Source of the DNA: a virus
Reading direction: 5' to 3' (one strand)
Virus record (IMG/VR): IMGVR_UViG_3300033402_000312
Length of the DNA: 14,549 nucleotides
A model generated the notes under the pieces. The model saw only the letters and a program-made list of their open reading frames with translations. It was not told the DNA's origin and did no database searches. The position numbers and the translations under genes were made by a program. Position 1 is the first letter of the stretch, and every line of letters starts with the position of its first letter. Below, piece by piece: positions 4,306 through 11,268 of the stretch.

Positions 4306-6660
4306 TCATGTAACAATCTTCGCGAAGGTGACGGTCTTGCCTACCGGGATGTTCGGGTTCTCCCAGTCCTTGCCACCCGGTATCGCCGGGACAGTGCGCG
4401 GGTCAAACACGGGCTGCCCCGTGCCCTTGCCGTCCTCCGGGTCGGGGCGCACGACCGGGTTGTAGAGCGTGGGCAGGCTGCTGTAGTTCTTGCGGATCAT
4501 CGCCTGCGCAGACAGGTAGCGCGTGTCGCCGGGTGCGAGAAGCTCCACGGTGAAGTCCTGCTGCAAGATGATGCCGCGAGGCATCTTGTACACCACGTCG
4601 CTGATGACCATGATGTCGCCGTTGGCGCGGAGGATCAGGTCACCGTTCTGGACGATGGGCGTGCGCGTCATGTAGCTCCGGGAAGTCCTCGTGGTCTTGA
4701 TGCCGCCCTCGTCGAGGATGCGGTTGAGCGCGGAGTCGGGAGGGACGAACAGGAAGTCGTACGGGCCGATGTAGCCGCCCACGAAGCCGGTCTCGAAGCA
4801 CACCGGGCAGCCGGTCTTGGGCTGCTGGCTGCCGAACACGCACCCGCACTGCTCGCCGCGCCACATGCGGAAGAAGCACAGCGCAGGCTCCCCCGTCGTC
4901 TGGAAGAGGTACTCGTTGCGGCGCACCATCTCCTCGTAGACCCAGTCGATCTTGTCGATCTCCTGCGTGTTCCTGACGTCGGTGCCTTTTTCTCCGGGCT
5001 TGTGAAGCTCGCCTTTCTCGCCGATGGGCACGACAGTATTCCCGCTCCAGCACGCCTTCCCGTTACGGCGCACGTACAGGAACATGTTAGGCACGGACAC
5101 GCAGAACACATCCCCGTGGTACTCCACATTCTCGATTTTCCAATTAGCGGTGTAGCCGGATTTTCTGGTATGGCGGGACACAAAATATCCTTGGCGGCAG
5201 GAAATTCTGCGCCCTTGGATTTCATCTTCGCCAGCAAGCTTAATATAGGTCGTGCTGGAGCTACCCATCTTCTGCACGATCTCAGTCAAATGATCAGCCA
5301 AGCGCCTTGATACAGTAAACGTCTGCTGTGTTCCCGACCCATCCCCGTTGGCAGCGCCGTCTCCCGCGTAATAATACTTCCAGAAAACCTCAAGTTGGCG
5401 GGGCGTAGCCTCGCGGATTTCCTCCGGCACAAATTTTTCGTGCGCATGTCCGAACTGGCGCAAATACTCACCCATGGCTACCGAATGCACCACCAATCCT
5501 CTGTCATCCAGCGTTACACAACCCCCAAATAACCTAGTCAATAGGGCGGCGTACAGTTCCCTAGAACCGCGAACGTCGCACGGCTGAGAAATTGTAAAGC
5601 CCTTGTTGTTGTGCAGCACGGAGCCTTCCGCCAAGTACATACCCATGAAGGCACAAAAGTCGTCTCCAGTCAGGACGATTTTGCGCGGTACCGGTCCAAA
5701 AATACGGCGGCGCTTGCCGCCAAAAACTTTTTCCTGAATCTCCTTTCCCGTCCACACAGACGTTGTTGCTATGCCTGTATTGGTAGAACTGGCTCCGGCC
5801 AAACTTGCCGCCTCAATTACATGTTCTTGTTTGTTCCTCGGTCTCTTTCTGCTGCTGATTCTGTCCGGCAAAGAATTGACCAGCATCCTGTGATTAGGAG
5901 TAACTAACTGGTCGAGGCTTTGCCCGTGTACGTGTACCAAGTCTCCGTCGTATCGCGCCTTGAAGAACCCATCGGCTTGTTGCCACTCGAACTCTTTGGT
6001 TTGAATTTTGCGGGTGGCAAACAGGTCGTCCTTTTGGCATTCTTGGAACAGCTTCCATCCGTCCTTCGTAAAGACCTCGGTGTCGTCAGAGTAGCAATAG
6101 TAGGTGCGGTTGAACGACGCGTAGATGTCAACATAGTTCGTAAGCTTGTTGAACACCGCCTGCCAGACCTGCACGCCGTTGTAGTCCGTCACGTTGACAT
6201 TGCCGGTGTTCGCCTGCGCGGTGTCGGACACCGCCCCGCCCGGAGCCAAGGTGTTGTCCACCAGCATCGTCACGGTGCGGTCGAAGCTATTGACGGACGT
6301 CGGTCGGCGAACCACGCCATCGGTGACGATCTGCACATCATCCGGGCTGTTGGACACGGTGACACGCCCCGATTTGACGGTAGTGTACGGCGTCTCAGGG
6401 AGCCGGATCACCCACTGTCCCGTTTCTCCTTTTTCAATGAAATCTTCCGGCTTGACTGTGTACGTTGTTTGCATCAACGTCGTCATATCTCGGTAGAAAT
6501 GCCCCCTCCAGTTCGCCGCGATCCGCTGCCAGTTGGAGGGATGATCGAACGCCCGGTACACATTGTAACCTTTGACGGCCCCGGGGTCCTCAACCCACCA
6601 GAGGTCATGACTTGAGGTTATACCCGAATCAATCAGAAGTAGGTTAGTGACCATGCTCAT
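4306..6660 (-). CDS. Intein-containing protein (784-aa precursor). The extein is ~434 aa of unknown, possibly virion, function.
   Basis: Uninterrupted ORF whose ATG overlaps the TGA of the upstream mini zinc-ribbon gene (ATGA). The extein halves (188 aa N-terminal, 246 aa C-terminal) flank an internal segment with intein and LAGLIDADG hallmarks. Confidence 0.8.
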   Translation of the reverse strand: MSMVTNLLLIDSGITSSHDLWWVEDPGAVKGYNVYRAFDHPSNWQRIAANWRGHFYRDMTTLMQTTYTVKPEDFIEKGETGQWVIRLPETPYTTVKSGRVTVSNSPDDVQIVTDGVVRRPTSVNSFDRTVTMLVDNTLAPGGAVSDTAQANTGNVNVTDYNGVQVWQAVFNKLTNYVDIYASFNRTYYCYSDDTEVFTKDGWKLFQECQKDDLFATRKIQTKEFEWQQADGFFKARYDGDLVHVHGQSLDQLVTPNHRMLVNSLPDRISSRKRPRNKQEHVIEAASLAGASSTNTGIATTSVWTGKEIQEKVFGGKRRRIFGPVPRKIVLTGDDFCAFMGMYLAEGSVLHNNKGFTISQPCDVRGSRELYAALLTRLFGGCVTLDDRGLVVHSVAMGEYLRQFGHAHEKFVPEEIREATPRQLEVFWKYYYAGDGAANGDGSGTQQTFTVSRRLADHLTEIVQKMGSSSTTYIKLAGEDEIQGRRISCRQGYFVSRHTRKSGYTANWKIENVEYHGDVFCVSVPNMFLYVRRNGKACWSGNTVVPIGEKGELHKPGEKGTDVRNTQEIDKIDWVYEEMVRRNEYLFQTTGEPALCFFRMWRGEQCGCVFGSQQPKTGCPVCFETGFVGGYIGPYDFLFVPPDSALNRILDEGGIKTTRTSRSYMTRTPIVQNGDLILRANGDIMVISDVVYKMPRGIILQQDFTVELLAPGDTRYLSAQAMIRKNYSSLPTLYNPVVRPDPEDGKGTGQPVFDPRTVPAIPGGKDWENPNIPVGKTVTFAKIVT
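5047..6096 (-). mobile_element. Intein of ~350 aa with an embedded LAGLIDADG-type homing endonuclease domain, inside CDS 4306..6660.
   Basis: It begins ...NRTYY|CYSDDTEVFTKDGWKLF (block A Cxx(x)DTxV after the extein). Block B is TPNHRML. The two LAGLIDADG-like motifs are FMGMYLAEGS and YYYAGDGAANGDGS. The C-terminal block is ...VPNMFLYVRRNGKACWSGN|TVVP, a terminal Asn followed by Thr+1. Codon positions were checked against the sequence: Cys codon at 6094-6096, Asn codon at 5047-5049. Confidence 0.7.
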
Positions 6661-6815
6661 TGTCTATAGACATACTCCTTACTTTCGCGGACATGCTTTC
6701 CGCACAGCCACACGCCGTCGCAGCGGACGCGGGCGGGGCTGCCGCAGTCGGCGCACTTCTCGAACTTCCATCCCCACAGGTCTATGCTTTCCGAGGATTT
6801 CCTGGAAAGAGTCAT
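6657..6815 (-). CDS. Mini zinc-ribbon protein (52 aa), paralog of 10844..11080 and 11077..11268. It is absent from the ORF track because it is under 60 aa.
   Basis: Hand translation gives MTLSRKSSESIDLWGWKFEKCADCGSPARVRCDGVWLCGKHVRESKEYVYRQ. AGGAGGGACT precedes the ATG directly after the homing-endonuclease stop. Its TGA overlaps the ATG of the 784-aa gene. It shares the motif C-x-DC...DG(V/E)W/V-L/F-C-x-x-H with the two other small proteins. Confidence 0.55.
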   Translation of the reverse strand: MTLSRKSSESIDLWGWKFEKCADCGSPARVRCDGVWLCGKHVRESKEYVYRQ

Positions 6816-6823
6816 AGTCCCTC

Positions 6824-10827: not shown

Positions 10828-10852
10828 GCTAATCTTCAACAGGCTAATCTTC
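10828..10852 (-). promoter_or_regulatory. Direct repeat GCTAATCTTC x2 (period 15 nt) about 30-55 nt upstream of the tandem-HTH gene start. It is a candidate operator or promoter element.
   Basis: Exact 10-mer copies at 10828-10837 and 10843-10852. The second copy overlaps the last codons and TAG of the upstream gene. Confidence 0.35.
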
Positions 10853-11080
10853 CCAAGCGGAATCTGGCATCTTTATCGGGAGCCAGTTGGGGTCTTGAGC
10901 GACATAGTTCACGGCATTGCCTTCGATGAAGTCATAGTGCTCGGCGCACAGCCAGACGCCGTCGCGCTTGATCGAGGCCGGGGCGTCGCAAAAATCGTAG
11001 TGGCTGACGCCGACTTTCACGGAATCGACGATCCTCTGCTCGCCGTGGCCCCCGATGATGAACCGGCAGCGGTGGCTCAT
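10844..11080 (-). CDS. Mini zinc-ribbon protein, paralog 2 (78 aa from the internal ATG). The track extends it to 11107 (87 aa).
   Basis: It contains ...HRCRF..GGHGEQ...FCDAPASIKRDGVWLCAEHYDF, sharing the DGVWLCxxH motif with 6657..6815. The ATG at 11078-11080 overlaps the TGA of the upstream 63-aa gene (ATGA), which favours the shorter start. Confidence 0.55.
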   Translation of the reverse strand: MSHRCRFIIGGHGEQRIVDSVKVGVSHYDFCDAPASIKRDGVWLCAEHYDFIEGNAVNYVAQDPNWLPIKMPDSAWED

Positions 11081-11268
11081 ATCGGAATCTTGTTCAGGAT
11101 AAACCAATGGTCGGCTTCCGCCACACCGTCTTCCGCCATCTTTCTCAAGCGCCGGATCATCTCGTCACGGTGCTTTTCGCAAAATTGCACTACTTCCCCG
11201 TCGATTTTGGTGAGGGTGGTCGTAGCGATACAGTCGCATTTTCCGTAAGTGAATCCACACTGAGCCAT
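11077..11268 (-). CDS. Mini zinc-ribbon protein, paralog 3 (63 aa).
   Basis: It contains MAQCGFTYGKCDCIATTTLTKIDGEVVQFCEKHRDEM..., i.e. CxC(D)C...DGxVxxFCxxH as in the other two paralogs. Its ATG is immediately adjacent to the TAA of the 264-aa gene (TAAATG). Confidence 0.6.
   Translation of the reverse strand: MAQCGFTYGKCDCIATTTLTKIDGEVVQFCEKHRDEMIRRLRKMAEDGVAEADHWFILNKIPI

Follow-up and report, generated by a model that had tools for sequence, protein, structure and literature searches.

Huge phages carry hundreds of small open reading frames (ORFs) that have no annotation, and the IMG/VR virus record IMGVR_UViG_3300033402_000312 raises the question of what some of them may be. This stretch of DNA, analysed over its whole length of 14,549 nucleotides and hereafter called the window, contains three short ORFs whose products have a similar arrangement of cysteines and a histidine. 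All the plausible genes of the window are on the minus strand, including these three, which we call A, B, and C:

ORF A, 6657..6815, minus strand: 52 amino acids (aa), basic (isoelectric point, pI, 8.8).
ORF B, 10844..11080, minus strand: 78 aa, acidic (pI 5.1), the archetype of what we call the WLCAEHYD family.
ORF C, 11077..11268, minus strand: 63 aa, a divergent paralogue that lies directly upstream of B and overlaps it.

The answer that we favour, to which we give an even chance of being right, is that A, B, and C are expressed paralogues of a family of stand-alone zinc mini-proteins that would resemble the N1 domain of ClpG/ClpK and bind other proteins.

The coordinates and lengths of the three ORFs, as well as their ATGA and TAAATG junctions, had been given in a preliminary description of the window and are confirmed here. 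Independent gene callers also predict the 52-, 63-, and 78-aa products on four public contigs whose sequence equals or nearly equals that of the window. ORF A has an AGGAGG (Shine-Dalgarno) sequence six bases upstream of its start, and its stop codon overlaps the ATG of the following 784-aa gene in an ATGA junction. ORF C starts at a TAAATG junction, and its stop overlaps the start of B in a second ATGA. Translation of B starts from the ATG at 11080 rather than from the TTG at 11107, and the MSxRCQF start is conserved in its orthologues (protein records P0003-P0008).

Each product has four candidate metal ligands. In A, the canonical-knuckle member, they follow the pattern C21-x2-C24-GSPA-x9-C38-x2-H41 (codons 6753-6755, 6744-6746, 6702-6704, and 6693-6695). 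In B they are C5, C31, C45, and H48 (codons 11066-11068, 10988-10990, 10946-10948, and 10937-10939), the first two being separated by a variable loop (residues 6-30), and in C they are C4, C11, C30, and H33 (codons 11257-11259, 11236-11238, 11179-11181, and 11170-11172). The preliminary description had assigned a common Cx(D)C pattern to A and C and only the C-terminal half of the motif to B. The classical C-x2-C knuckle turns out to be present in A only. In C, the residue C13 of the proposed CxC varies among orthologues whereas C4 and C11 are invariant, and it is the latter two that are the candidate ligands. As for B, C5 is invariant in its orthologues and occurs in at least 90% of 36 diverse members that we aligned, followed by a loop of variable length before C31, so that B has the full ligand set.

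How large is the family? Three members are indeed scattered through the operon, as the preliminary description had it, but they are a small part of the whole. Scans of IMG/VR and the JGI metagenomes with patterns taken from the alignment of B returned 23 loci. Local searches with hidden Markov models (HMMs) among the six-frame ORFs of the fetched loci (31 loci) gave about 45 distinct members, and the total now stands at about 80 distinct mini-proteins, found in related huge phages and often in tandem arrays. Their signature reads M..(H)xC[QE][FY], a variable loop, C[DG]xPAx[IV][KR], 2-15 residues, W[LFY]CAEH[YW]D, and a variable, usually acidic, tail. The motif W-x-C-x-x-H-[YWF]-D is present in 67 of 76 members, and C31, C45, and H48 (B numbering) are invariant in the 36 diverse members. 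Across alignments of 36-49 members, the four ligands, P34, A35, W43, and D50 are the only conserved positions. Most proteins are acidic (pI below 6 in 84% of 80 members; median pI 4.85, median net charge -5), and A is an exception.

A HMMER scan of 1.84 billion cluster representatives with a profile of A, the B family, and C identified 48 clusters at E<=1e-3. Among these, 46 are genuine, and all 46 are stand-alone proteins of 48-134 aa, one with a C-terminal membrane segment and one with two copies of the domain. The other two are artefacts of repeat proteins; the long matches P0042 and P0051 had been considered as domain fusions and were rejected as repeat or low-complexity artefacts. We found no credible match to A or B by tblastn among 50,697 records of cultured phages, and a megablast of the whole window against these 50,697 records gave no match at all. 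The family was not recognised in the preliminary description, and A, B, and C have no significant match in Pfam, PHROGs, or NCBIfam (in Pfam, none at E up to 1). Literature searches found no prior description. On these searches the family seems previously uncatalogued and so far known only from uncultured huge phages.

The largest array that we saw is in locus L028 (12,144 bp; positions 155144-167287 of the 463-kb contig Ga0326728_10000049; related loci are denoted by such L numbers). It has 22 copies of the motif W-x-C-x-x-[HC] within 12 kb, in tandem or near-tandem, many of them with overlapping start and stop codons. Tandem copies were also found elsewhere, three in L017 and two each in L019, L025, L026/L027, L030, and L031. 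In the L028 array, the histidine that is the last ligand is replaced by cysteine only (WLCADCYD, WLCAECYD, WICDRCAE), which is the typical behaviour of a metal ligand.

We conclude that A, B, and C are paralogues, C being the weakest link, because of the pairwise statistics of A and B, the profile matches with ligands in register, the invariant alignment columns, and the shared ends and tandem position of B and C. A and B share CxxPAxxxxDGVWLCxxH (BLASTP E=2e-7, single comparison). The profile of the B family matches A in hhalign with P=6.8e-8 and a probability of 94.6%, and when built without A it still picks A out of 6,367 six-frame ORFs (E=2.9e-4). The relation of C, which the preliminary description had placed on the same footing, depends on profiles. 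BLASTP gave no alignment of C with B and a weak one with A (E=0.004), with a 2-residue gap between DG and Cys, and A matches the C family weakly (P=0.022). The profile of the C family matches that of the B family with P=2.2e-4 and the 36-sequence family profile with P=7.4e-5 (hhalign), all four candidate ligands being in register. As a control, we shuffled the columns of the C alignment, and 1 of 300 shuffled alignments reached the score of the C family against the 36-sequence profile. When A, the B family, and C are aligned with MAFFT, the invariant positions are C5, C31, A35, G41, C45, and H48 (B numbering). Finally, B and C have a common start, M-x-x-(x)-C-x-F, and their orthologues a common C-terminal W-[LF]-x-x-K-[IM]-P (NWLPAKIP versus HWFVLNKIP; 10844-10900 and 11077-11110). 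This motif may be a short docking peptide, and its presence in both proteins is further evidence of a tandem duplication. A 98-aa ORF at 3259-3555, once suggested as a distant fourth member, is unrelated (hhalign P=0.8).

Are these ORFs genes? A word-indexed homologue search returned six homologues of B and, for A and C, the queries themselves only. We recovered the orthologues of C by synteny, as the gene upstream of each homologue of B, in L005, L006, L008, L014, L015, and L018. The ratios of non-synonymous to synonymous substitution rates (dN/dS, Nei-Gojobori) are 0.08-0.38 among orthologues of B and 0.08-0.35 among those of C, and because of these values B and C are genes under purifying selection. 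All six relatives examined retain the four-base ATGA overlap between C and B. No orthologue of A was found.

The pair lies in a conserved neighbourhood, in which its immediate flanks in the window are the following:

264-aa gene, 11269-12063, minus strand: near-threshold match to the Nmad1/DUF1599 "nucleotide modification associated" domain.
262-aa gene, 10008-10796, minus strand: protein with multiple helix-turn-helix (HTH) motifs.

Very large phage contigs related to the window (447,784 bp, 169,608 bp, and others) preserve the synteny of C and B. The genes run from an AAA ATPase through small membrane proteins, the Nmad1/DUF1599 gene (in relatives also with DUF6899), C, B, and the multi-HTH gene to adenylate kinase, beyond which come baseplate- or tail-like genes and a sheath. 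The AAA ATPase gene (589 aa) is about 1.2 kb upstream of C in the same string of genes. The flanks of the pair are a hint of a DNA-modification neighbourhood. Orthologues of the 262-aa multi-HTH protein match HMUDK_hel, the helical domain of 5-hydroxymethyldeoxyuridine (5-hmdU) DNA kinases.

Several other observations concern this neighbourhood and the contigs that carry it. Two small predicted membrane proteins are encoded at 12106-12360 and 12326-12487 (minus strand), and both are kept in relatives. The 84-aa one has a cysteine-rich acidic tail (...CYCCREGMCDPACRC...DDEDDAA; in relatives ...VQCNCDDEDDAA), and the 53-aa one weakly resembles FeoB-associated cysteine-rich membrane proteins. Around position 14423, the window lacks one base that is present in contig L001, to which it is otherwise identical (CCCTTTGTCG versus CCCTGTTGTCG), and this deletion divides an 86-aa cysteine-rich ORF (CFYC...CPYC) between two frames, 14303-14434 and 14389-14505 on the minus strand. 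The difference is either an assembly variant or a real frameshift. The exact proteins A, B, and C (records P0001, P0002, and P0009) are found on a contig of 894,233 bp which, if it is one phage genome, would be exceptionally large. Relatives on contigs of 463,041 and 447,784 bp are accompanied by genes for a phage sheath, NAMPT/NUDIX, UvrD, and adenylate kinase.

To what known domain might these proteins be related? A profile search of all the chain sequences in the PDB gave a single match, 8p66_B, the N1 domain of ClpG/ClpK (E=0.015), in which CGQPATVRV is aligned with CDxPAxIK and LLCDDHY with WLCAEHY. The comparison of the family with N1 by hhalign gave a probability of 88% (P=2.8e-6), and BLASTP of A against ClpK N1 gave E=3e-5 as a single comparison, with CxxCGxPA and LCxxH aligned. 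When the N1 fragment was used as the query among the 6,367 locus ORFs, 25 of the 27 best matches were members of the family, including A and C, each of them individually non-significant. Neither the C family nor the AAA ATPase nearby gave anything useful as a query against the PDB.

In ClpG, N1 has a beta-sheet and, after it, a helix, and the domain is held together by zinc that is coordinated through C6, C9, C31, and H34 (Katikaridis et al. 2023, PMC10641755); the purified protein was studied by ICP-OES or ICP-MS and by CD or NMR (PMC10641755). N1 is monomeric and binds hydrophobic peptides by beta-strand addition (PMC10641755). Similar zinc domains are found at the N-termini of ClpE and McsA (PMC10641755). 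N1 is the zinc finger with which the disaggregase grabs protein aggregates. The phage proteins are like N1 in having about 45 residues with one candidate metal site made of Cys, Cys, and Cys-x2-His, C-G-x-P-A after the second cysteine, and L-C-x-x-H-Y at the start of a helix after a beta-hairpin. The spacing C-x2-C...C-x2-H is matched exactly by A (C21-x2-C24-x13-C38-x2-H41). The phage proteins differ from N1 in being free-standing, with no fusion to an Hsp100 AAA+ ATPase in any of the 46 genuine representatives, A, B, and C themselves being separate ORFs. They also have an invariant tryptophan before the third cysteine and an aspartate after His-Tyr, and they occur in tandem arrays.

The predicted structure of B fits this comparison. 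An AlphaFold2 run with a 7-sequence alignment was unusable (predicted local distance difference test, pLDDT, of 51), and we used an alignment of 49 sequences instead, which gave a model with a mean pLDDT of 74 and core blocks at 76-88. The model has a long hairpin formed from the variable loop, a short hairpin (37-44), and a helix (46-54) that starts at C45-x2-H48, a predicted layout that matches that of N1. Fold searches gave no match, and the relation with N1 is not confirmed by fold.

Some points weigh against this reading. The similarity with N1 is short and borderline at the scale of the database (E=0.015). The first pair of ligands is split by 25 residues in B and by 6 in C, and it is split in most members too. 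The substrate-contact residue V17 of ClpG corresponds to R39 in B and to C32 in A, and because of these replacements the aggregate-binding surface of N1 is not conserved. The equivalent in C would be L19, a position obtained by carrying the MAFFT register of A, B, and C over to N1 rather than from a direct alignment of C with N1. Lastly, A is basic and has no orthologue, and its coding status depends on the family motif, the Shine-Dalgarno sequence, the junction, and the composition of its third codon positions only. On balance, N1 is the nearest known relative, and distant homology is probable.

Other short zinc domains are less close. The N-terminal LIM-like zinc finger of TtuA (PF22082, TtuA_LIM_N) is matched weakly by 7 of 36 members (best E=0.0015, below the cut-off), and the ClpK N1 fragment itself has weak matches to DUF7455, TtuA_LIM_N, and DUF6757. 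TtuA_LIM_N, DUF7455 (PF24254), and DUF6757 (PF20542) have the same kind of short CxxC...PA...LCxx[CH] zinc-ribbon pattern, but the matches are all below the curated cut-offs and A, B, and C have none at E up to 1. The gathering thresholds of these three families, and of zf-C4_ClpX and zf-dskA_traR, were reached neither by A, B, and C nor by any of the 36 members scanned. Judged from these profiles, the likeness is a resemblance within the zinc-ribbon class, not membership.

A different function has to be considered, particularly for A, given what lies next to it:

Free-standing GIY-YIG homing endonuclease gene, 6824..7555, minus strand: 243 aa, with Pfam and PHROG matches, not a member of the family.
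784-aa gene, 4306-6660, minus strand: downstream of A, with an intein-type insertion at 5037-6098.

The endonuclease is identified by matches to Pfam GIY-YIG (E=8e-6) and to a PHROG of homing endonucleases (E=2.7e-24), and A lies 8 bp downstream of its gene. A segment of about 1 kb with both genes (6654-7648) is absent in L005 and L006, where the 318-aa and 430-aa genes on either side of it directly follow one another (with 4 bp between them in L006). Nucleic acids are common ligands of zinc ribbons. The proteins might therefore be small nucleic-acid-binding zinc ribbons, such as regulators of transcription or translation or accessories of DNA recognition, and A, which is basic and is part of the missing segment, could be a DNA-binding module for the endonuclease; B and C, for their part, adjoin the multi-HTH protein. 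Against this, in L032 an orthologue of the endonuclease (62% identity) follows a 317-aa gene at this very site with no A, and no A-like ORF was found near the relatives of the endonuclease in L033 and L034. The GC content at third codon positions (GC3) is 0.72 in A, like that of resident genes, and 0.56 in the endonuclease gene (overall GC 0.51), the neighbouring genes being at about 0.8. At the level of the family, the acidity of 84% of the members and the lack of matches to any DNA-binding zinc-finger family in Pfam and NCBIfam scans speak against nucleic acids as ligands. We thus regard nucleic-acid binding as possible for the basic A and unlikely for the family as a whole, and as an overall explanation rather unlikely.

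The idea that A is an integral part of a GIY-YIG cassette was rejected, since in L032 the endonuclease occupies this site with no A beside it, and the two genes differ in base composition. Two database searches for orthologues of A found A itself only, and scans of IMG/VR with back-translated patterns gave no match. Because the endonuclease of L032 lacks A and GC3 is 0.72 versus 0.56, A is a lineage-specific extra copy of the family that lies beside a mobile element, not a conserved part of it. This position next to an insertion that related genomes lack was missed in the preliminary description, as were the size of the family and the complete ligand set of B.

Two observations on the mobile elements are added here. 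The insertion in the 784-aa gene is about 1.06 kb long and has weak LAGLIDADG and intein-splicing matches, and the 430-aa orthologues in L005 and L006 are without it; the intein and the free-standing GIY-YIG endonuclease are within 1.5 kb of each other. The C-terminus of the GIY-YIG protein (6824-6880, RHVRWHVNRGKPNPGCSLC) has an H-x3-H...C-x2-C motif that is kept in the L032 orthologue (RHVRWHVNRKQTNPECPLC), and this is probably a zinc finger of the endonuclease's own, unrelated to the family of A, B, and C.

It might also be argued that there is no family, the resemblance of A, B, and C to each other and to N1 being the convergence of unrelated short cysteine-rich ORFs, with A perhaps a spurious ORF from the endonuclease insertion. 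The common stretch is short (18-37 residues), BLASTP of B against C is not significant, the match of A to the C family is weak (P=0.022), and selection on A is not measurable in the absence of an orthologue. Yet A and B are similar at E=2e-7, and A matches the B-family profile with P=6.8e-8. The identity goes past the ligands (PA, DGVWL), and C and B, which are tandem neighbours, have similar architectures from end to end. As for A, its Shine-Dalgarno site is strong, its ATGA junction exact, and its GC3 like that of coding sequence, all of which is hard to reconcile with a spurious ORF. Because of the statistics of A and B and of the selection on B and C, we consider convergence or a spurious ORF very unlikely. 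Weaker still is the view that these proteins are degenerate remnants of HNH/His-Me-finger (treble-clef) nucleases, a resemblance drawn in the preliminary description: all that favours it is a superficial likeness, the C-x2-H that opens a helix in His-Me and treble-clef fingers too. It is scarcely credible given that no nuclease family, whether HNH, His-Me, or another, was matched by A, B, or C in Pfam, PHROGs, and NCBIfam at E up to 1 (nor by the 36 members in Pfam scans), that no catalytic His-Asn-His pattern is conserved in the alignments of 36-49 members, and that the sole sequence match of known structure is the non-catalytic N1.

Returning to A, B, and C as stand-alone zinc mini-proteins, how might they work? 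Each protein, typically of some 50-80 residues, would fold round one metal site, Cys...Cys...Cys-x2-His, as is strongly indicated by conservation, the metal being most likely Zn2+. Between ligands 1 and 2 there would be a loop of 2 to about 40 residues, and ligands 3 and 4 would stand at the start of a short helix after a beta-hairpin. The domain is probably of the same kind as N1 of ClpG/ClpK, here free-standing, and tandem duplication would have raised its copy number within one clade of uncultured huge phages. In such a scheme C and B would be an old co-translated pair, probably made in equal amounts and possibly forming a heterodimer, and A would be a lineage-specific extra copy beside the homing-endonuclease insertion. 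That their translational coupling is conserved suggests a joint action of C and B.

We infer that the family is a protein-binding module, because most members are acidic, motifs for nucleic-acid binding or catalysis are lacking, the core is invariant while the loop and tail hold most of the variation, and N1 binds peptides. The zinc-stabilised hairpin and helix would serve as a small scaffold, with specificity provided by the variable loop and the C-terminal tail, so that each paralogue might bind a different host or phage polypeptide as an adaptor or an inhibitor; the proteins would neither bind nor cut DNA. Multicopy families of small proteins are known from large phages in general, and the present one is like them in that its members are small, are duplicated in tandem, vary in loops and tails around a conserved core, and are encoded among small ORFs of unknown function. 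The tandem arrays, the variable loops, and this location are compatible with a role in host takeover or anti-defence. No link to a characterised anti-defence or host-takeover protein was found, by sequence or function, in searches that did not include PADLOC and anti-defence libraries.

A more specific scenario is that a clade of phages of 0.4-0.9 Mb took the zinc finger by which Clp/Hsp100 proteins recognise substrates or adaptors, and diversified it into dozens of paralogues that act as decoys or adaptors, redirecting or blocking the host AAA+ proteostasis or feeding the phage's own AAA ATPase. We hold this to be quite unlikely as it stands, but if true it would add a new class to the host-takeover proteins of phages.

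The fold class and the metal-ligand pattern were already known. What appears to be new is a family with a split first knuckle and the WLCAEHYD motif, its restriction so far to uncultured huge phages, its tandem amplification, and its probable link with the Clp zinc domains. The family is rare, with 48 of 1.84 billion clusters and no match in cultured phages, and yet at least 22 copies are present in one 463-kb genome, which suggests a diversifying interaction module. Three anonymous small ORFs of a huge phage can now be placed in a family with a signature, a likely metal site, evidence of selection, and a structural analogue, ClpG N1. If the relation with the Clp-type domain fails, the family would still merit a Pfam-type entry and could serve as a marker of this clade of phages. 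If it holds, it would point to proteostasis as a target of takeover by huge phages.

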